NCBI GenBank assembly: GCA_009786925.1
Contig: WRGY01000125.1
Location: 21,810 to 85,809, forward strand
Source: Defluviitaleaceae bacterium
GTDB taxonomy: Bacteria; Bacillota; Clostridia; Lachnospirales; WQUN01
DNA: 64,000 nt
Direction of reading: 5' to 3'
Shown: one piece after another, positions 5,101 through 57,394 of the stretch
How the letters are laid out: every line of letters starts with the position of its first letter
Position numbering within the stretch: position 1 is the stretch's first letter
Notes under the pieces: model-generated
What the model saw: the letters and a program-made list of their open reading frames with translations, nothing else
Told to the model about the DNA's origin: nothing
Database searches by the model: none
Program-made: the position numbers and the translations under genes

Positions 5101-5249
5101 GCTCTAACCAACCTGCTCTCCAAAACCAAATCTCTCCTGTTAACGTAGGCGGAAGAGTATTTGTACCCGGTCGTTTCCTTGCAAATGCTTTCGGCGTTGC
5201 AATTGACTTCCAAGGCGCAGGCGACAACATGACAGTAATCCTCGGCTAG
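2157..5249 (+). CDS. Large secreted cell-surface (S-layer-like) protein with C-terminal copper amine oxidase N-terminal-like repeats
   Basis: I place the start at ATG 2157, behind AAGGGAGA and in frame with the 1848 track ORF. The signal peptide is MKKKVALLLALVMVMAMLPMNVFGA. The body is Ala/Gly/Thr/Asn-rich. The tail (GARMFADFIGAAIDFEG..., GRVFVPGRFLANAFGVAIDFQG) matches the Cu_amine_oxidN1 'stalk' pattern also seen at the end of the 44083 protein. Confidence 0.75.
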   Translation: MKKKVALLLALVMVMAMLPMNVFGAVRAGTVLNPQLSPQWGLQSFTFRIDAAAFSNLSPGVIQFAMLDFQLSGGASSNAVGFASRAALNINFTAGPGFRVNNDVSQNAAFLASLNAASTAGSGNREFFDYTETLAYENWLDVNSGRTPRHLNVLGQSDTGVWGGLLGGSYDAAAGTVTAIPATGVRYSATRLMVDLLGGDPARLNNTVEGFIDVQIDSIRPDAADATMAIYLRTGGNNIMHVPVQLANVPLVGDWGNGVVISSRSVVPMAGIAQLSGIRITEAIPGRLMTNDATVAGNFDVRLVAPRGFVWDTGALVGIVPRALEVELNSAIGTPSNPTISLITLPGNAANPHLNPSTDRSELYLRISHAGRGGSFVNRTTTAEFTITGLTLIPVRGAASSGNVAIDAFIGSGPANSSMSPPAGFNADQMRATDNIVGTTGSWGRGFLMPHLVTSTSATPIPTFTDHMGSFWSEHNSGGSNWRNLGLVVASLDATNDIEVVGPTAPANVISGRLTNGELTNSFFGPGFGVRGNAFSNINIAGNPRWLHGSSHTIRLQEVTPGTLFRNFDTFELRPVQEGVRIVDARAQAGREGAVDTNFAWRGFENDASFIGAITDFTGESLIFAPRTIDAESQSRLRRMDIGLLLSIEAGFEAKYGEAVEIEVFRNGVSIGIAHVANASDLIRVVPGPETVITRNAFDVLALTQVSSFSIEETEAGAFRSGDTFRIGLRAIQNGREVNAGNLTGMGTMALTLGLVEFNEAESGIVVEAVRGQDNTFRVVRGSYDVPGVIEFQDVYLAGPSVPGLEWHVVVFGPEISANHEEIILPPVASELNNPAAPTGQEASPVGYRSVWEQRAIFYTMPFHAQVLDVRGTPVIGSPGYAGGAAGPGGTVTTSFTLATRDIEGHPALHFERIGAFNVSMFGARMFADFIGAAIDFEGAGVGQTVTLTGNHAATGAAVEVVLTVGSNMARVNGNNVDIAYGSNQPALQNQISPVNVGGRVFVPGRFLANAFGVAIDFQGAGDNMTVILG

Positions 5250-5270
5250 TATCTAGCCTTAAAGCAAGAC

Positions 5271-5306
5271 AAAAAGCTCCGAGCCTCGGCTCGGAGCTTT
5301 TTTGTA
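5271..5306 (+). terminator. Rho-independent terminator of the surface protein gene
   Basis: AGCTCCGAGCC / GGCTCGGAGCT forms a perfect inverted repeat followed by TTTTTT. Confidence 0.85.
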
Positions 5307-5312
5307 TTCGTC

Positions 5313-5363
5313 GTAGATGTTTTGGTCTGAACGCGATTCGGCCACTCTCTTCTAAACCGCTCA
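5313..5363 (-). repeat. Dispersed repeat family R, copy R2 (interrupted)
   Basis: GTAGATGTTTTGGTC (5313-5327) and AACCGCTCA (5355-5363) are the two halves of the R unit, separated by a 27-nt insert. Confidence 0.55.
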
Positions 5364-5436
5364 TTTGCCCCATGTACAAATATTTGGTATAATATAACGA
5401 ATTGATTACAAAAATTTTAAAAACAGGAGAGCATAA

Positions 5437-7905
5437 ATGAGTGAAGTGAACACAAGAATAAAGGGTATAGATATAACCGACGAAATGCAAAAGTCATATC
5501 TCGACTATGCAATGAGTGTAATTGTAGCACGCGCTTTGCCTGACGTGAGGGATGGGCTAAAACCTGTCCATCGCCGTATTTTGTATGCCATGAGCGAGCT
5601 TAACCTTGCGCCAAATTCTGCATACAAAAAATCTGCTCGTATCGTGGGTGACACTATGGGTAAGTACCATCCTCATGGTGATTCTTCTATTTATGATGCT
5701 ATGGTGCGTATGGCGCAGGAGTTTTCTATGCGGTATGTGCTGGTGGATGGACATGGTAACTTTGGCTCTATGGATGGTGATGCGGCGGCGGCACATAGGT
5801 ATACTGAGGCACGACTTTCGCGGCTTTCTATGGAAATGCTTACGGATATTGAAAAAGAAACAGTAGACTTCGCGCCAAACTACGATGAGCAGTTTGATGA
5901 GCCTACGGTGTTGCCGGCGCGTTTTCCAAATTTGTTGGTAAATGGCTCTTCGGGTATTGCAGTTGGTATGTCTACAAATATACCGCCGCATAATTTGACT
6001 GACGTAATCACTGCCATACTTTATAGGATAAATCATATGCGTGAGGGTGTAGAGACCCCGCTAAAAGACCTGATTGATATAGTAAAAGCACCCGACTACC
6101 CTACAGGTGGGGCAATACTGGGCACCGCAAGTATCCGCGAAGCATATGAAACAGGACGTGGAAAAGTAATCTTGCGAGCTGATGCGACCATAGAGCCGTT
6201 GCCAGGTCAAAGCGGACGTGAACAAATCCGTGTGACAGCTATTCCGTATCAGGTAAATAAGGCCAATCTTGTCAAAAAGATGGCAGACCTTGTAAAAGAC
6301 AAAAAAATAGACGGAATCACCGACATCCGCGATGAATCCAACCGAAACGGTGTCCGTATAGTAATAGAATTGCGCAAAGATGCAAACGCAAATGTAGTCC
6401 TTAATCAACTGTATAAGCTTTCTCCTTTGCAAGAGAGCCACGGCATAATCATGCTCGCTCTTGTAAAAAATGAGCCGAAAATTCTAAATCTCGGCGAAAT
6501 GGTCGAGTATTATATCGAACACCAAAAAGAAGTAATAACCAGGCGTACGCGGTTTGACCTAGCTAAGGCAGAACGTCGCGCCCATATAGTTGAAGGGTTG
6601 TTAAAAGCACTCGACCATGTAGATGACATCATCGCACTCCTACGTTCTCATCAGGATGAGGCCGAAGTAACCCCAATTATGATGGAGCGATACGGTCTGT
6701 CAGAAATCCAAGTAAAAGCCATATTAGACCTGCGCTGGCGCACATTGTTAAAGCTTGCACGCGAAAAATTGGAGGACGAGTATCGTGACCTCCAAGCCCT
6801 AATCGCCGAGCTAAACAGAATCCTGTCCGATGAAAACTACCTTCTCCAAGTCCTGACAGATGAGTTGACCCGCATAAAAGATAAATATGGCGACTCGCGT
6901 CGTACAGCCATAGTCCATGATTATGGTGATATAAATATGGAGGATTTGATTGACGAAGCCCAGAGTGTAATCACGCTTTCTCAACTGGGCTATATCAAGC
7001 GTATACCTCTTGATGCATACCGTAGCCAAGGCAGAGGCGGCAGGGGTGTAATCGGAATGCAAACCCGCGAGGAGGACTGGGTCACAGACCTTTTTGTGGC
7101 TAATACGCACGATAATGTGTTGTTCTTTACTACACGCGGGCGGGCGTTTAGCTTGCGCGCCTTCGAAATCCCCGAGGCAGGCCGCCAGGCCAAGGGAATG
7201 CCCCTTGTTAACCTGCTCAACCTAGCAGGTGAAGAAAAAATAGCCGCCATGATTCCCGTAACCAAAAACGATTGGGAAGGATTCCTAATTATGGTGACAC
7301 GCAAGGGTCTGGTTAAGCGTTCTTTGTTGGAGCTGTATTCGCGCATAAACAGGGCGGGTCTAAACGCCATCACATTTAAAGAGGATGATACCCTCATCGA
7401 GGTATTGCGCTCCGATGGCGACAGAGAACTCTTCCTTGCTACAAAAGAAGGTCGTGGCATCCGTTTCCATGAGTCACAGGCGCGTGCCGTAGGTCGTACA
7501 GCAATGGGTGTGCGCGGTATGAAGCTGCGCGAAAATGACGAAATCATAGGCTCAACAGTGGCTGATGGACAAGTCCTGCTCGTCGCCGCAAACGGATACG
7601 GCAAAGTAACTCCTGTGGAAGCCTTCCGAGGCCAAAACAGAGGCGGATTTGGCGTGATTATTTATAAAACAACAGAAAAAGCCGGCGACCTCGTAGGCAT
7701 AGAGGCCGTACAAGAAAACGATGGGCTTATGTTAATCAACTCCGAAGGTGTAGTAATCCGCATACGCATAGCCGATATATCCGTACAAGGCCGCTACGCC
7801 TCGGGCGTAAAACTTATCAACATGGCAGACGAGAGTACGGTGGTGTCCATTGCAAAGATTCCGGATGATGATGACAATGGTGAAGAAGAGGATGTTAACC
7901 CCTAA
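5437..7905 (+). CDS. gyrA: DNA gyrase subunit A
   Basis: 822 aa. It has [42 protein letters not shown] (catalytic Tyr region), C-terminal beta-pinwheel repeats and an acidic tail. Confidence 0.97.
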
Positions 7906-9857: not shown

Positions 9858-9871
9858 AGTTAATTTACTAC

Positions 9872-10450
9872 TTACTCTGCTAATTGGTCTACGTTATCGA
9901 CATCCAATAAAAGACAAAGCAATCTCTTGATGCAACTATGCTCAGGACTAGCAGCAAGTCTGCAATCGCCGCAATTTAGATTGTTGCATCCGCCACATTC
10001 TCCTGTTTTTAACGTATAGTCAGAAGCAATAACGGAGCATATGGGTATGTAACGTGCAATTTGAACTCCTTTAATAAGTGCTTTAAACACAGATGCATTC
10101 TTAAAATCTTGACTGTCGAAAACAACAGCAATATTTGCTCCTTGATTCATGCTACTGTGCTTATCTTTTATTTTATTAATCACATATCTGTTAAACCTAG
10201 AAGTTATTTCTACGAAATCGCCAGACTCATCGATTTGAGAAATAGCATTATACACTTCATATTCGGGGGTTGGTATGTTATAAACTTTAAAAATAGAGTC
10301 ATCCACAGAGCATATTTCTCTCGCCTTATCAAGCTTTAACTCAATTTGCTCCTCATAAGATTGTTTGCCTAAAAAAACAATTAACCATGTATAAGGATTG
10401 AGTGTTAACTCTTCCGGTTGGTGGTATTCTCCATAGTTATTAAATATCAT
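9872..10450 (-). CDS. Cys-rich 192-aa protein of unknown family, partner of the AAA_21 ATPase
   Basis: ATG 10450 sits behind AGGTGA and 11 nt inside the ATPase 3' end. The C-terminal cluster is CGGC-x4-CGDC plus two more Cys. IAVVFDSQDF and WLIVFLGKQSYEE are faintly RloB/Toprim-like but lack the canonical Glu. Confidence 0.6.
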   Translation of the reverse strand: MIFNNYGEYHQPEELTLNPYTWLIVFLGKQSYEEQIELKLDKAREICSVDDSIFKVYNIPTPEYEVYNAISQIDESGDFVEITSRFNRYVINKIKDKHSSMNQGANIAVVFDSQDFKNASVFKALIKGVQIARYIPICSVIASDYTLKTGECGGCNNLNCGDCRLAASPEHSCIKRLLCLLLDVDNVDQLAE

Positions 10451-11699
10451 TTTGCTCACCTATAGAAAAATTATTTTGAATAGCACCAAATCTCCCCGCT
10501 AAGTATGCTTTTCCAAACTCGCGGTCTACCTTAGACTTGTTAACACTGGCAGGCAATTTTGCAATCCTAGAGTATCCGTCGTCATTTTTTTCAACAAAAT
10601 AAACCTCATCTGTCCGCATATCCTGGTCGTTTAGGGCAACTAAATTATGCGCGGTAAAAATGAGTTGTGCTTTGTTTGCTTTTTGTTTTTGAAAACTTTT
10701 CACAATTTCTCGTAGTATTTTGGGATGAAGCTTTGTATCTAACTCATCTGCAATTACCAATCCGCCATGATTCAATGCGCGGAGAATAATACTACAAATA
10801 CTTGCGATTTTTTGTGTCCCTGCCGATTCTTCAAATATCGAAATCTCACGCATCTGCTTTTTGGGGTCTTTTGGGGTATGAGCTTTATGTTTAACATAAA
10901 GCTCATACCCCTCCACTGTGGATTTGTCGGGTTTGGATACTATATCGACTATACACGGGTCAAACTTTTGCATAAACTTTAAATAACGTTTTCTGGCTTT
11001 GTCATTACGAGCGACTAAACGAGCTAATGATGAAATCCGGCTCCTCATATCTTCATCATCAAAAAACTGCGGAGGAGTTGTTTCCTCACACCAGTCATGG
11101 ATTGATGAATACGGCTCTTCCCATGTTCTCCCCGCCAGTGGCAAAAAGAGCATACTTTTACTTTTTCCGATGGTCGCTTTTAATGCCGCAACAGCATCAG
11201 GAACATTTTCTCCAAAGTCTATACGATTGCCTACGCGCTTAAAAACGACGGTAAAATCATCGCCACTTTCCATTATCCGAGATTCCAACCATTCTTCAGC
11301 AATAACCTTATAATCCTTGTCGCTAAGGCTCCGCTCTTCTTCGCGTGAAATTTTATAGCCATATTTATATTCCTTGTATTCCGTTTCACCATTTTCATTT
11401 GGCAAACAAAAAATCATCTCGCATAACATCGGCTCGTCTGCTAAATTATCATCAAAAGCAAACACATCACCACGCAAATATATGTCACCGCGGCATATAT
11501 TCCAAAACATACTGCTCAAAGCCTTTATGTAGTTACTTTTACCGCTTGCATTTGCACCGTAAATAGAAATAACAGGTAATACATTTATATTACCTCTTTC
11601 AATTGCAAACCTTTTTTCATCCACATTTGATGCAACTAACGAAATATTTGCATTTTTTGCAAATGAATAGCAATTTTCACAGCGAAAAGAAAGTAACAT
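10440..11699 (-). CDS. AAA_21/ABC-type (SMC-like) ATPase
   Basis: Best start is ATG 11699, 7 nt after AGGAG; the track start 11735 lacks an RBS. Walker A is GANASGKS (nt 11535-11558), Walker B/D-loop is VIADELDTKLHP and the H-loop is FTAHN. A long insert lies between the Walker motifs. Confidence 0.8.
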   Translation of the reverse strand: MLLSFRCENCYSFAKNANISLVASNVDEKRFAIERGNINVLPVISIYGANASGKSNYIKALSSMFWNICRGDIYLRGDVFAFDDNLADEPMLCEMIFCLPNENGETEYKEYKYGYKISREEERSLSDKDYKVIAEEWLESRIMESGDDFTVVFKRVGNRIDFGENVPDAVAALKATIGKSKSMLFLPLAGRTWEEPYSSIHDWCEETTPPQFFDDEDMRSRISSLARLVARNDKARKRYLKFMQKFDPCIVDIVSKPDKSTVEGYELYVKHKAHTPKDPKKQMREISIFEESAGTQKIASICSIILRALNHGGLVIADELDTKLHPKILREIVKSFQKQKANKAQLIFTAHNLVALNDQDMRTDEVYFVEKNDDGYSRIAKLPASVNKSKVDREFGKAYLAGRFGAIQNNFSIGEQNDI

Positions 11700-11819
11700 A
11701 GGATGTCTCCTCTTTCCATTACATAGCTCGTCCATATTATCACTCCAAAAGTTAAATTACAACACTATTCTCGCCTTATGCTATATTTTTTTATACTTGT
11801 GTCTAACGATGCCTCGTGT

Positions 11820-12629
11820 TTACAGGCTTTCTTCGCTTTTGACCAAAACATCTACTATTATTCCTCCCACCGTCCCCGCTATTCCATGCTTAAACACATG
11901 GTTGATTAGTGTTTGTTCACGTAGTGGTTGTTTATTGTCATCTATGTAAAAATTTATAAAGTAGTCGCCGGTCAGGCGTTCCATTGCTTGTTTTATATTT
12001 GTATCCGGCGAGATTTTTATTTTTTTTATTGGAAGGGTGCGGGCGCGGTTTATGTGATTTTTTCCGTCAATGGCCAGATGGAAAGCGGCCTCCAGCTCGG
12101 AAGGTAGGGTTTTGTGTTTTTTACGGATAAAAAAACCTGCAAGCAGTAGTGAAATATTAAACGGAAATAATATGGCCTGTACAATGCCAAACAAAATAAA
12201 AGTGTATGACACAACGATGCCAAGGCGAAGCATAAAACGGTTTGCACGCAAAATACCTATGCGATTGCCCAGGAATTGGTGCAAAATCCGTCCGCCGTCC
12301 ATAGGGAGAGCGGGCAAGAGATTAAAAATGCCCAGTACCGCACTATAAAATGCTAAATCATCAAGAAAACCGACACCTACATATGAAATATGCGACACGG
12401 CAAAAGCCCATAATGCGATGGCGATGTTTGCGGCGGGTCCTGCAACAAACACGGCGTATCTTTCCCATGCGTTTAGGGTTTCCAGCCGTCGTGCCTTTGC
12501 CATCATTCCCAGTGGGAAAAAGCCGACCTTTTCTACCTTGGCACCCATAAATTTTATGACAAAGACATGCGCCCACTCATGAATCAAGAGTGAGGCGGCT
12601 ACCATCAATATTGTGATTACAATTGTCAT
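11820..12629 (-). CDS. spoIVFB: Site-2 (M50) intramembrane metalloprotease, SpoIVFB-like
   Basis: 269 aa with the HEWAH zinc motif in TM1, NLLPALPMDGG and a C-terminal CBS-like domain. It has a 4-nt overlap with the upstream M23 gene, matching the spoIVFA-spoIVFB arrangement. Confidence 0.7.
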   Translation of the reverse strand: MTIVITILMVAASLLIHEWAHVFVIKFMGAKVEKVGFFPLGMMAKARRLETLNAWERYAVFVAGPAANIAIALWAFAVSHISYVGVGFLDDLAFYSAVLGIFNLLPALPMDGGRILHQFLGNRIGILRANRFMLRLGIVVSYTFILFGIVQAILFPFNISLLLAGFFIRKKHKTLPSELEAAFHLAIDGKNHINRARTLPIKKIKISPDTNIKQAMERLTGDYFINFYIDDNKQPLREQTLINHVFKHGIAGTVGGIIVDVLVKSEESL

Positions 12630-20181: not shown

Positions 20182-20829
20182 CTAATACGTCGCTTTTATA
20201 TCATTTATAATTTGGCCAAAAACTTGTTCTCGCTCTATGGAGGTATCATAAATTGTGAATCCATACTTAGGTAAATAATTTACCGAATATCGACTGAACG
20301 AAATATTCTCTTCAGCAACTTTTTTTAATTCATCATTATCAAAGCCGTATGTCCAATCATCTACCGTGTCGTATTTTCTCATGTCGGCTACGAGTTCATC
20401 CACTGTTTTATGGTTTTGCACTAATCCTACAAGAACAAAACGGTCTCTTAATTCGTCTATCCCATACATTTTTACGATAGGCAATATTTGCTCAAAATCA
20501 AAAGACCAACCCTCTATTACAAAATTGTTCCCAGATAATCCACCTTGAGTATACGGAAATAATCCCTGACCATCAGGAGCAGAAAACATACCAAGGAAGT
20601 GTCCAAGGAATGGAGCAATATTTTTCCTAGTTTCTTCTCCATTACCAATTCGAATATTTAATTGTGGATATGCTTCCCCAAAAGTAGCCACAAGTCTGTC
20701 GTTGTTAATTACGAAATAATTCAATTCTTCTTTTAATTTTCTGGCTAATGTTGATTTGCCCGCCCTTCCTGCTCCTGAAATTATTATATTTTTAATCGTC
20801 CACACCCACCTAATTTGAATGTTACGCAT
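20182..20829 (-). CDS. P-loop NTPase / nucleotide-kinase-like protein
   Basis: Walker A is IIISGAGRAGKSTLARKL near the N-terminus when started at ATG 20829. The track start 20892 would overlap mazF by 26 nt. It lies downstream of, and co-oriented with, mazEF. Confidence 0.6.
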   Translation of the reverse strand: MRNIQIRWVWTIKNIIISGAGRAGKSTLARKLKEELNYFVINNDRLVATFGEAYPQLNIRIGNGEETRKNIAPFLGHFLGMFSAPDGQGLFPYTQGGLSGNNFVIEGWSFDFEQILPIVKMYGIDELRDRFVLVGLVQNHKTVDELVADMRKYDTVDDWTYGFDNDELKKVAEENISFSRYSVNYLPKYGFTIYDTSIEREQVFGQIINDIKATY

Positions 20830-20850
20830 GTACCACACTCTTTGTGGTAC
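20830..20850 (-). promoter_or_regulatory. Perfect 8-bp hairpin abutting the P-loop gene start
   Basis: GTACCACA-CTCTT-TGTGGTAC lies in the 37-nt mazF to P-loop spacer and contains ACA triplets. Its function is unknown. Confidence 0.3.
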
Positions 20851-20866
20851 ATAACAGTGCGCCCTA

Positions 20867-21217
20867 TCATTTTTCCAGATAGTGAAGCACATCGACTGCG
20901 CCTTGAATAATATCAGTTACTTGAAACAGTATTTCTTTTGGTAAAATATCACCTGTTTGATTATACCCTCTGTTTTGCAAGTCAACCGCACGAAGGTGTT
21001 CACACAAGATATAGCCTGTCGTTTTCGTGCCTTTAAGAGGTATGTCCATTGGTTTTTTCCGGTTTGTGTTGGTTATGGGGCAAATCCATATGAGATTGCT
21101 TGCTTTTCCAAAGTCCGCATTACTCACAACAAGCGCAGGACGGTATCCCGACTGTTCATGGCCTTTTACCGGGTCGAAGTTGGTTAGAATAATCTCGCCT
21201 TGTTTTGGTTTAATCAT
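20867..21217 (-). CDS. mazF: MazF/PemK family type II toxin (endoribonuclease)
   Basis: 116 aa with GEIILTNFDPVKGHEQSGYRPALVVS and ICPITN. It overlaps the mazE stop by 8 nt. Confidence 0.9.
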   Translation of the reverse strand: MIKPKQGEIILTNFDPVKGHEQSGYRPALVVSNADFGKASNLIWICPITNTNRKKPMDIPLKGTKTTGYILCEHLRAVDLQNRGYNQTGDILPKEILFQVTDIIQGAVDVLHYLEK

Positions 21218-55578: not shown

Positions 55579-56160
55579 ACTCGCCATGATAGGACTAAGT
55601 GCGCGATATAATACAAAGCCAAGCGTAACAACAATGCCACCCTTCAATAAATTGAAAGGCACAAATGCAAAAAGAATAAGCGTATACACATCTACGACGC
55701 GGTGATTAATCGCGTGTGAGATGGAGATAATTGTTTCGAGCGGGATAAAAATCCTGGAATACAGTGGTATCAGTATTAGATAATTTACAATGCTTGATAT
55801 AACCACCAACGAAACAATACCTGTCGCCGCTCCCAGCATGTAGCCGATAGTATCGCTACGTTTTTTGAAAATGAAGCCGATGGGTACTACAAGTGATGCA
55901 CCCATAATAAAATCTGCGAGGTTGCCGATACCGCCCGTATTTGTGCCAAAAATGAGTGGGTCGAGTAGATTTTTTATGAGCAAGACAAGCAGTCCGGTGA
56001 GCGGTCCTGTGGTAATCGCGCCGACCAGTGCAGGGACATCGCTAACATCCAGCGATAAAAATCCCGGGAATATAGGCAGGCTGACCCTAAGTTGCCAAAG
56101 CACGGTTGCAATCGCACCGAGTATAGCGGCACGCACCATTATTACAGTCTTGCCATGCAT
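55567..56160 (-). CDS. ECF transporter S component (vitamin-type substrate-binding membrane protein)
   Basis: ATG 56160 lies 5 nt after AAAGGAGAG. The product is polytopic, and FLSLDVSDVPALVGAITTGP is typical of RibU-like S components. Confidence 0.55.
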   Translation of the reverse strand: MHGKTVIMVRAAILGAIATVLWQLRVSLPIFPGFLSLDVSDVPALVGAITTGPLTGLLVLLIKNLLDPLIFGTNTGGIGNLADFIMGASLVVPIGFIFKKRSDTIGYMLGAATGIVSLVVISSIVNYLILIPLYSRIFIPLETIISISHAINHRVVDVYTLILFAFVPFNLLKGGIVVTLGFVLYRALSPIMASLRK

Positions 56161-56224
56161 AAAAACTCTCCTTTTTCCCACTTTGCAAGAAAGTCCAATA
56201 TATCACAGAGAGTGAAATTAATCC

Positions 56225-56977
56225 ATGCAAATATTATTGACAATATCATATGACGGCACAAACTACGCAGGCTGGCAACGCCAAGAAAATGCGGTAGCCG
56301 TACAAGAAAAAATCGAGGACGCACTTACCTCATTGCTATATACCGCGCATCCATTTGAGCGAAAGGCAACCGTGAAGGCTTGCAGCAGAACGGACGCGGG
56401 TGTACATGCGCTGGGGCAGAGAGCGTCTTTTTTTGCCGATGACCTAAAAATCCCGCTGGACAAGTTGCCAATCGTGATTAATGGGCTGTTGCCGCAGGAT
56501 ATTTCTGTTATAAAGGCAGAAGAAGTAAGTGACGATTTTAATCCCCAGTTTGATGCAAAGCAAAAAACATATATATACAATTATTATAATTCGCCATTCC
56601 CAAACCCTCTGCTATCTCGATATAGTGCATTTGTGCCGGAAAAACTCAATATCACGGCGATGCAAAAAGCCGCAAAAACCTTTGTGGGGAAACATGACTT
56701 CGCGGCTTTTTGTGCAACAGGGGGAAGTGCAAAAACTACCGTGCGGGAAATCTTTAGCTGTTTTGTGGTGCAAAAAGGAGAGGCCATCGAAATGTGCATA
56801 ACAGGCAGTGGCTTCTTGTATAACATGGTGCGCATCATAGCAGGGACGGTGCTGTATTCGGGGCTTGGCAAGATTTCGCCTGATGATATAGGCTCGATTA
56901 TATATTTGCGTGACCGCAGAAGGGCGGGCAAAACAATGCCTCCTCAGGGCTTGGTGCTTGCACAGGTGAAATATTAA
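56225..56977 (+). CDS. truA: tRNA pseudouridine(38-40) synthase
   Basis: 250 aa with ISYDGTNYAGWQRQ, the catalytic Asp context SRTDAGVHALGQ, and FLYNMVRII. Confidence 0.93.
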   Translation: MQILLTISYDGTNYAGWQRQENAVAVQEKIEDALTSLLYTAHPFERKATVKACSRTDAGVHALGQRASFFADDLKIPLDKLPIVINGLLPQDISVIKAEEVSDDFNPQFDAKQKTYIYNYYNSPFPNPLLSRYSAFVPEKLNITAMQKAAKTFVGKHDFAAFCATGGSAKTTVREIFSCFVVQKGEAIEMCITGSGFLYNMVRIIAGTVLYSGLGKISPDDIGSIIYLRDRRRAGKTMPPQGLVLAQVKY

Positions 56978-56978
56978 T

Positions 56979-57394
56979 ATGAGATATAAAGACGGAGAAA
57001 TACCTGATGAGTTAAAAATATATGAGCTTTCGCTAATCTGGAAAGAAGCAGAGTACAATTTTGCCTTTTGGGAAGAATTGGACGGCATTATTGATTGGAA
57101 TCAGGAGTATAAAAAAGCATTGTCTTATGTATTAAAAACAAAAAATTTACATGAGTATTATTTAGTACTCATGAAATTTTTGGCATTGTTGCGAGATGGG
57201 CATATGGGGGTGTGGTTTCCGCAAGCTATTGAAAATTCTGCAAAGTATACCGCTAAGTTGCCGATAATACCGTTAATTATTTTTTAAGCTGTGGTGCTGT
57301 TGACAGTATTGTGGAATTTGAGGTTGAACATGACGGCAAAATTGAGACAATAAAATTGACTCGTACAAATGATTGTACCCCTGTCAAGTGACTT
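56979..57394 (+). pseudogene. N-terminal remnants of an S41 (tail-specific/tricorn-like) peptidase gene, frameshifted
   Basis: 56979-57287 reads ELSLIWKEAEYNFAFWEELDGIIDWNQEYKKAL..YYLVLMKFLALLRDGHMGVWFP, the typical Peptidase_S41 N-terminal module. After the stop the sequence continues in another frame (57290-57394: CGAVDSIVEFEVEHDGKIETIKLTR). Confidence 0.5.

Follow-up and report, generated by a model that had tools for sequence, protein, structure and literature searches.

A 64-kb stretch of DNA from a metagenome-assembled genome (MAG) of a termite-gut Defluviitaleaceae bacterium, hereafter the window, carries on its minus strand two overlapping genes, encoding an ATPase of the ATP-binding cassette (ABC) type and a small cysteine-rich protein, hereafter the partner. 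A first-pass annotation of the window had described the pair as an orphan islet with the architecture of a phage-defence system. Comparison with related genomes and protein families revealed that the pair is a horizontally acquired two-gene cassette and that the partner occupies the position held by RloB in the remaining ATPase family. The locus comprises the following features.

10440 to 11699, minus strand: AbiLi/RloA-type ABC (AAA_21) ATPase of 419 amino acids, with an alternative upstream ATG at 11735.
9872 to 10450, minus strand: Cys-rich partner of 192 amino acids, whose gene overlaps that of the ATPase by 11 nt and is translationally coupled to it.
11700 to 11819, minus strand: spacer of 120 nt from the spoIVFB stop to the ATPase start, which contains the ribosome-binding site AGGAG and a weak promoter-like site at 11805-11778.
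9863 to 11871, minus strand: indel block of about 2.0 kb, consisting of the ATPase, the partner, the 120-nt spacer and the last 17 spoIVFB codons, as delimited by blastn against the related genome L018.

The two minus-strand open reading frames (ORFs) extend over 10440-11735 (431 amino acids from the first ATG) and 9872-10459/10450. The ATG at 11699 is the favoured start of the ATPase: AGGAG lies 8 nt upstream, the resulting 419-residue form is a public database entry (P0002), and the start agrees with that of the homologue in contig L001. The partner ATG at 10450 is preceded by GGTGA and lies 11 nt within the 3′ end of the ATPase gene, whose TAA stop codon occupies 10440-10442. Translational coupling and a start at 11699 behind AGGAG had both been proposed in the first-pass annotation and were confirmed at the sequence level, as was the presence of all motifs that it quoted for the two proteins. 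The partner gene ends at 9872, and a DUF2229 gene starts 14 nt further on. Pfam assignments confirmed the neighbours named earlier, with two DUF2229/HGD-D-like genes (PF09989) on one flank and Peptidase_M50 and Peptidase_M23 genes, which are spoIVFB/spoIVFA-like, on the other. A scan of the locus for promoters and terminators yielded promoter-like matches at chance level and predicted no terminator. As an independent assembly of sequencing run SRR5248941 is 100% identical across 6579 bp of the region, the gene arrangement does not stem from an error in a single assembly.

The pair is richer in AT than its neighbours, as had been noted before, with a GC content of 37.6% compared to a window mean of 45.3% (standard deviation 3.2); only 11 of 622 equal-sized segments are as low. 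A scan of GTDB with the DUF2229 protein led to two related Defluviitaleaceae MAGs, L018 and L019, of which L018 (Co191P1bin4) shows 93% protein and about 83% nucleotide identity to the window. Alignment by blastn matched window 13012-11872 to L018 4815-5955 and window 9862-7905 to L018 5997-7957, leaving about 2009 bp in the window and 41 bp in L018 between the homologous flanks. The spoIVFA, spoIVFB and DUF2229 genes are contiguous in L018, where spoIVFB (5198-6004) overlaps the DUF2229 start at 6001; the pair is thus an indel at this junction, a point that the earlier annotation had left to comparative analysis. Neither protein of the pair is encoded within the 13 kb fetched from L018 and from L019. 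Within the indel block the GC content is 33-38% compared to 44-53% in the flanks. The last 17 SpoIVFB-like residues (window 11820-11871) differ completely from those of L018 (5956-6004). Apparently, the insertion supplied a new 3′ end to spoIVFB, which no longer overlaps the DUF2229 gene. No convincing target-site duplications or terminal repeats were found flanking the 2-kb insert.

Homologous pairs were found in other surroundings: in L001/L002 the pair sits between Sua5/LMWPc and UxaC, and in L003 it adjoins a GH95 fragment. The pair is richer in AT than its surroundings in both of these hosts too (36.6% compared to 48% GC in L001 and 35.9% compared to 41-47% in L003). A reciprocal empty-site test found none of the L001 flanking genes Sua5, LMWPc and UxaC in the window. 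There is accordingly no fixed synteny with sporulation genes, the pair being absent from the L018 junction and placed in unrelated contexts in L001 and L003. As the site is empty in L018, the contexts vary and the GC content is foreign, the pair is a horizontally moving cassette which enters different genomic contexts and belongs to neither the sporulation nor the DUF2229 operons.

Judged by profile matches and motifs, the ATPase is an ordinary AbiLi-type member of a known family. The AbiLi profile PDLC02335 was the top of 76 PADLOC matches (2e-66, 222 bits), with AriA (1.2e-23), HEC-01A, PtuA and NsnB all far behind; the PtuA profiles reached only the C-terminal third of the protein, at 1e-9 or weaker. 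Residues 45-356 matched Pfam AAA_21 (PF13304) at 3.2e-22, by which the AAA_21 layout resembling SMC and ABC proteins, proposed in the first-pass annotation, was upheld and further specified as AbiLi-type. The protein also matched phrog_5836 (8e-56), and 4134 homologues were retrieved at E ≤ 1e-10. Among solved structures, PtuA proteins of Septu/retron systems come closest by sequence, with a weak match (8ee4, E = 2e-4). A long insert separates the N- and C-terminal halves, and the ABC-type AAA_21 features are all present, with conservation assessed in 14 homologues.

11535 to 11558, minus strand: Walker A motif GANASGKS, residues 48-55; G48 and N50-N56 are invariant.
10809 to 10829, minus strand: ABC-signature-like motif ESAGTQK, residues 291-297; S292, G294, T295 and K297 are invariant.
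10737 to 10760, minus strand: Walker B motif with catalytic glutamate, LVIADELD, residues 314-321; D318 and E319 are invariant.
10644 to 10658, minus strand: H-loop region FTAHN, residues 348-352; H351 is invariant or nearly so.

As the Walker A motif, the SxGTxK signature-like motif, the Walker B motif with its glutamate and the H-loop histidine are conserved throughout these diverse homologues, the ATPase looks catalytically competent.

Distant relatives of the ATPase (22-34% identity) are followed by RloB (PF13707, Toprim) at nearly every locus examined. A PF13707 RloB gene lies directly downstream of the ATPases with 30-34% identity in metagenome contigs L005-L009. Among IMG/VR viral contigs, a downstream ORF is present at 45 of the 49 loci examined; all ten downstream proteins tested matched PF13707, and nine of these matches exceeded the gathering threshold. 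The same pair occurs on a plasmid of Clostridium beijerinckii, where the two genes are annotated ‘ATP-binding protein’ and ‘RloB family protein’. The Cys-rich partner was found in the RloB slot only in the closest ATPase subclade, represented by the window, L001/L002, L003, L004, L013 and L014. Here, ATPase relatives of 47-55% identity (P0003, P0004, P0005 and fragments in L013 and L014) have a partner homologue immediately downstream. In five homologous loci the genes are co-directional with the ATPase first, and their spacing varies between an overlap of 14 nt and a gap of 10 nt. Three homologous pairs share 55/45%, 49/34% and 50/39% identity with the window ATPase/partner. As the closest ATPase homologues each carry a partner homologue directly downstream, ATPase and partner co-diverge as a unit. 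The Cys-rich partner therefore sits in exactly the slot that RloB holds in the remaining ATPase family, which supports the earlier assignment to systems of the AbiL/RloAB/PARIS/Septu kind. The description as a strict orphan has to be given up, because a small family of relatives exists.

AbiL has been grouped with PARIS as a system in which an ABC ATPase is combined with a TOPRIM/OLD-type nuclease, and its mechanism is described as still untested (PMC13064643; PMC10440598). Experimental evidence for an abortive-infection or anti-phage phenotype is known for lactococcal AbiL only (Deng et al. 1999, cited in PMC13064643).

Two observations on the distribution of these pairs may be added. The canonical AbiLi-RloB pairs in L005 (3001-6493) and L006 (202-3738), which are other gut Firmicutes contigs, lie immediately upstream of spoIVA, and among RloB-partnered ATPases theirs are the closest to that of the window; the sporulation-gene neighbourhoods of these pairs and of the window pair (spoIVFB) are worth noting but probably a coincidence. 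Run SRR5248941 holds both the window cassette (L100) and, at another locus, a diverged L001-type cassette (L002; 55%/45%). As both come from the same run, at least two co-resident populations carry different versions of the cassette.

The family of the partner is very small. An exhaustive phmmer search of 1.84 billion cluster representatives yielded 7 true representatives including the query (P0001, P0122-P0126 and P0128) and one additional match, a spurious repeat protein. The window partner had no match in Pfam, PADLOC, NCBIfam, PHROGs or PDB sequences, and 8 aligned family members produced no match to Pfam or PADLOC, PF13707 and AbiLii included, with a threshold as lenient as E ≤ 10. The absence of a recognisable HNH, DUF4435, RloB or DUF4276 profile, reported in the first-pass annotation for the window protein, thus holds for the family as well. 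In a word-indexed protein search the partner alone found only itself and the family profile only three known members; a 4-sequence alignment found no relatives on viral contigs and one new metagenome locus, which is a duplicate of L012.

Although the members share only 23-45% identity, eleven residues are invariant in all eight, namely W22, L23, I94, A108, F116, C138, C155, C160, H171, C173 and L177. Three segments of the protein are relevant to its origin and function.

10367 to 10387, minus strand: β1 motif WLIVFLG, which aligns with RloB ‘LIVCEG’; the Toprim glutamate is replaced by Leu27.
10103 to 10129, minus strand: β3 motif AVVFDSQDF, which aligns with RloB ‘VFDkDDF’; the second aspartate of DxD is replaced by glutamine.
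9914 to 10039, minus strand: C-terminal Cys/His cluster of C138, C152, C155, C160, C163, H171, C173 and C179, a putative metal-binding module with no RloB counterpart.

The cluster includes CGGC-x4-CGDC at 9962-9997, followed by C173 and C179 as further cysteines, and, with C138 counted among the conserved residues, it extends over about 9914-10039. Seven of 8 members have C163, and the spacing of the cluster is C-x4-C-x2-C-x7-H-x-C. As the only invariant polar residues are four cysteines and one histidine, the C-terminal third probably forms a metal-binding module, for which zinc would be the most likely metal. The Cys region did not match any zinc-finger family of Pfam, and its PDB matches were at chance level. 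The zinc-ribbon type suggested in the first-pass annotation is a conjecture.

The first-pass annotation had seen a faint resemblance of the partner to RloB/Toprim motifs, and this is the sole remote relationship that survived our tests. In an hhalign comparison of the 8-member partner family with 28 non-identical RloB partners a score of 31.1 (P = 4.4e-4) was obtained. None of 150 column-shuffled alignments reached this score (mean 12.2, standard deviation 2.2, maximum 18.4), the reversed alignment scored 15.7, and controls against the ATPase profile scored 14.5-16.5. Leave-one-out runs gave 29-32.5, and several of them widened the alignment over both Toprim motifs, which with relaxed extension (-mact 0.02) were aligned in register. 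RloB proteins have LIVCEGxxTE, VFDkDDF and SNxxFExW, and the partner has WLIVFLG and AVVFDxxDF at positions matching the first two. The best RloB match of the partner hidden Markov model (HMM) was that of L006, where it accompanies the nearest RloB-partnered ATPase, and the nearest RloB sequences of L005/L006 share a ‘WLIVCEG’ context. The C-terminal 52 residues of the partner alone gave no RloB match by hhalign.

The Toprim fold is a three-layer α/β fold with a four-stranded sheet of strand order β2-β1-β3-β4. The AlphaFold2 (AF2) model of the partner, calculated from a 7-sequence alignment, had a mean predicted local distance difference test score (pLDDT) of 71.6 and a predicted template modelling score (pTM) of 0.71; residues 21-140, the core, were mostly modelled at pLDDT 80-90 and show strands and helices in the sequence order β-α-β-α-β-α-β. 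A single-sequence model (pLDDT 49) was too poor and was not used. In a Foldseek search of the viral models of BFVD the top match was an ‘RloB-like protein’ (probability 0.99, E = 1.4e-2, TM score 0.33). Foldseek against the PDB found nothing at E < 1e-3 and returned generic α/β folds (vWA, GT-B, flavodoxin-like).

Homology of the N-terminal core with RloB/Toprim is the best-supported relationship of the partner, short of being established, and a remodelled RloB derivative is more likely than an unrelated protein. The alternative to such a derivative, which we consider unlikely though the strongest of the rivals, is that an AbiLi-type ATPase recruited an unrelated small zinc-binding effector, comparable to the HNH nuclease of Septu and the DUF4435 protein of PARIS, and that the motif likeness is convergent, as may arise in any β-α-β protein. 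Such a displacement would be in keeping with the failure of all 8 members to match the RloB, DUF4276 or DUF4435 HMMs, with the lack of conservation at all Toprim catalytic positions, with the generic character of the Foldseek matches in the PDB, and with family members that occur without an ATPase, as expected of an independent module. It fits poorly with an hhalign signal well over the shuffled, reversed and unrelated-profile controls, with motifs that match RloB in order and spacing, with an RloB-like protein as the best viral fold match, and with the context of the first motif in the nearest RloB proteins. Moreover, the position, orientation, size class and coupling of the partner gene are the same as those of RloB.

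If the partner descends from RloB, it has apparently lost the catalytic residues of its ancestor. Toprim hallmarks are a glutamate after β1 and DxD after β3, both of which RloB has (PMC12065111), and in AriB, the Toprim nuclease of PARIS, the substitution E26A abolishes defence and toxicity (PMC11464382). The position of the glutamate, which is CEG in RloB, is occupied by leucine or isoleucine in all eight members (L27 in the window), in agreement with the earlier remark that the canonical first glutamate is missing. Six of 8 members have the first DxD aspartate (D112), D115 is likewise found in six, and the second DxD position holds Q, C, K, R, R, E, K and R across the family. With the glutamate and the second aspartate lost and with D112 and D115 each retained in just 6 of 8 members, canonical Toprim catalysis by the partner is very unlikely.

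The closest known systems are AbiL (Lactococcus AbiLi/AbiLii) and RloA/RloB, the latter known from Campylobacter type I restriction-modification loci. They share with the window pair the ATPase profile (2e-66) and a two-gene, co-directional and tightly coupled operon in which the ATPase comes first; the partner is similar in size and position, and its core aligns weakly, in register, with RloB. They differ in that the partner described here fails the PF13707 and AbiLii profiles, has neither the Toprim glutamate nor the second DxD aspartate nor SNxxFExW, and possesses the invariant Cys/His cluster instead. Since the features that define RloB and Toprim are missing from the partner, we regard the locus as an AbiL/RloAB-type variant rather than a strict member. 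A tool which requires both AbiLi and AbiLii profiles would, judging from our HMM scans, miss it.

PARIS, which consists of AriA and the DUF4435 Toprim nuclease AriB, likewise combines an ABC ATPase with a small partner, which has a Toprim fold in PARIS. There, the partner is sequestered by a hexamer of the ATPase until a trigger binds and sets it free (PMC11464382). However, the window ATPase matches the AriA profile at 1.2e-23 compared to 2e-66 for AbiLi, its partner has no DUF4435 match, and the equivalent of the glutamate E26, essential in AriB, is absent. In Septu/retron PtuA/PtuB an ABC ATPase also regulates a small nuclease, and PtuA 8ee4 is the nearest solved structure; PtuB, however, is an HNH nuclease, whereas our partner matched no HNH or PtuB profile. 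The Cys/His spacing of the partner also appears unlike the HNH motif. Precedents for a Toprim fold joined to a Cys4-type zinc module were reportedly described by Aravind, Leipe and Koonin in 1998, a work cited in PMC11464382 and PMC12065111, for RecR, DnaG and topoisomerase IA, of which RecR is said to be non-catalytic. In Menshen, the ABC-ATPase-bound effector NsnC has an inactive PIN domain at its N-terminus, and a different, C-terminal domain does the work (PMC12065111). The likeness of the partner to these proteins is architectural only; no sequence or profile relationship was detected.

On balance, we consider it somewhat more likely than not that the locus is a mobile cassette of the AbiL lineage with a remodelled, Toprim-dead, zinc-binding partner and a role in defence. 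The partner would descend from RloB and would have kept the β-α-β Toprim-like core, probably as a surface for docking to the ATPase. Its Toprim catalysis would have been lost by replacement of the glutamate with leucine or isoleucine and of the second DxD aspartate mostly with lysine or arginine, and the C-terminal ‘SNxxFExW’ region of RloB would have been exchanged for the invariant Cys/His cluster, most likely a zinc-binding module. By analogy with PARIS and Septu, an oligomer of the ATPase may bind ATP and hold the partner. A cue from an invader, sensed by the ATPase, might then release or activate the partner, as in PARIS. The freed partner, as the putative effector, could act on nucleic acid through its Cys/His module rather than a Toprim site, cleaving it as a metal-dependent nuclease or else binding it tightly or blocking it. 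For both the defence function and this mechanism we infer from the better-studied systems. It is possible, but rather doubtful, that the partner represents a previously unrecognised class of effector or sensor, with a Toprim scaffold used for docking only and a metal-dependent module which may also act alone, given the intact standalone copies, one of them beside an IS21-like element. It would then define a new AbiL-derived defence subtype missed by the profile libraries tested.

Several findings weigh against the proposed origin and role. Homology with RloB is weak: the hhalign probability is 33%, the HMM-to-sequence scores between the partner and RloB are at most 11.6 bits, and none of the 8 members matches PF13707 or PADLOC AbiLii at E ≤ 10. 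The Foldseek match has an E value above 1e-3 and a TM score of about 0.3, and generic Rossmann-like PDB folds score alike. Residues 141-170 of the Cys region were modelled at a pLDDT of 43-51. No defence-island context exists at the locus, where the neighbours are housekeeping genes, and no homologue was found in the phage or plasmid collections searched.

Also on this side of the balance are three intact family members (P0123, P0126 and P0128) which occur without the ATPase on short contigs of 2-6 kb and complicate a simple model of a sequestered toxin. P0123 (L011, 645-1247) is flanked by genes on the opposite strand. P0128 is encoded in L010 (327-866), and an ORF fragment upstream of it seems to resemble the N-terminus of replication-initiator-like proteins of Firmicutes mobile elements. 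The L010 and L011 contigs are 4 kb long. P0126 (L012, 1-2236, and L017, 1-3207) lies directly upstream of IS21-like istA/istB genes. As the independent contigs L012 and L017 start at the same base (GTGTGTAGATCAC...), this gene appears to be situated at the margin of a repeat or mobile element and is perhaps a passenger of an insertion sequence. The existence of standalone copies argues that the partner is not an obligately ATPase-sequestered toxin, although on contigs this short a distant ATPase is possible.

It is improbable, in our view, that the pair is a selfish addiction module of the toxin-antitoxin kind or a decaying AbiL remnant, with a pseudo-enzyme as partner and no current role in defence. 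Both ORFs are intact in every complete pair and the catalytic motifs of the ATPase are invariant; the invariance of the Cys/His set among members of 23-45% identity indicates purifying selection on function, not decay. Such a module or remnant would nevertheless be in keeping with the loss of the Toprim catalytic residues, the extremely small family present in few metagenomes and the isolated location outside any defence island, and AAA-type ATPases can be antitoxins of Toprim toxins (PMC10440598). The notion that the pair is an accessory, specific to this lineage, of the spoIVFA/spoIVFB operon or the DUF2229 genes, which are like coenzyme A activases, draws on the co-directionality with both neighbours, the 14-nt gap to the DUF2229 start without a predicted terminator and the spoIVA-adjoining pairs of L005/L006, but it is largely refuted and was rejected as highly improbable, since the closest relative lacks the pair and has spoIVFB abutting the DUF2229 gene, homologous pairs lie in unrelated contexts and the composition is foreign.

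Pairs of an ABC ATPase and a small effector, such as PARIS, Septu, AbiL, Menshen and Gabija, are a major theme of phage defence and have diversified largely by effector swapping. The AbiL-lineage cassette described here appears to exemplify another route, in which a Toprim effector was remodelled in place next to an intact ATPase instead of being swapped. If so, it would provide a natural separation of function between the part of RloB/AbiLii which docks to the ATPase and the part which kills, and it would add a family missed by the profile libraries used. That effectors diversify in ABC-ATPase systems is in itself expected, and the practical weight of the finding is limited, as the family is tiny and apparently confined to few gut metagenomes.

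One further feature was found within the ATPase gene.

10873 to 10911, no strand: perfect 39-nt palindrome (19-nt arms, 1-nt centre) within the coding sequence, which encodes ...EGYELYVKHKAHTP.

This palindrome exceeds by far what is expected by chance in a 2.5-kb region. It is also present in the independent assembly L100, and it was not found in the homologous ATPase genes of L001, L003 and L004. A tblastn self-match had hinted at an extended inverted repeat around it, and nothing was found past the 19-nt arms. The palindrome may have arisen by a template-switch mutation or may form a functional hairpin.

Elsewhere in the window, a GC content below 40% was observed at 1-600 and at 56100-57100, where it covers a truA-like gene and small ORFs. 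A further low-GC ORF (20182-20892, minus strand) encodes a kinase-like P-loop protein of 236 amino acids (GAGRAGKST), which is 34% identical (E = 7e-32) to the product of L019 4946-5584, a gene located just upstream of the DUF2229 gene in that genome. It looks like another variable gene moving around these genomes.

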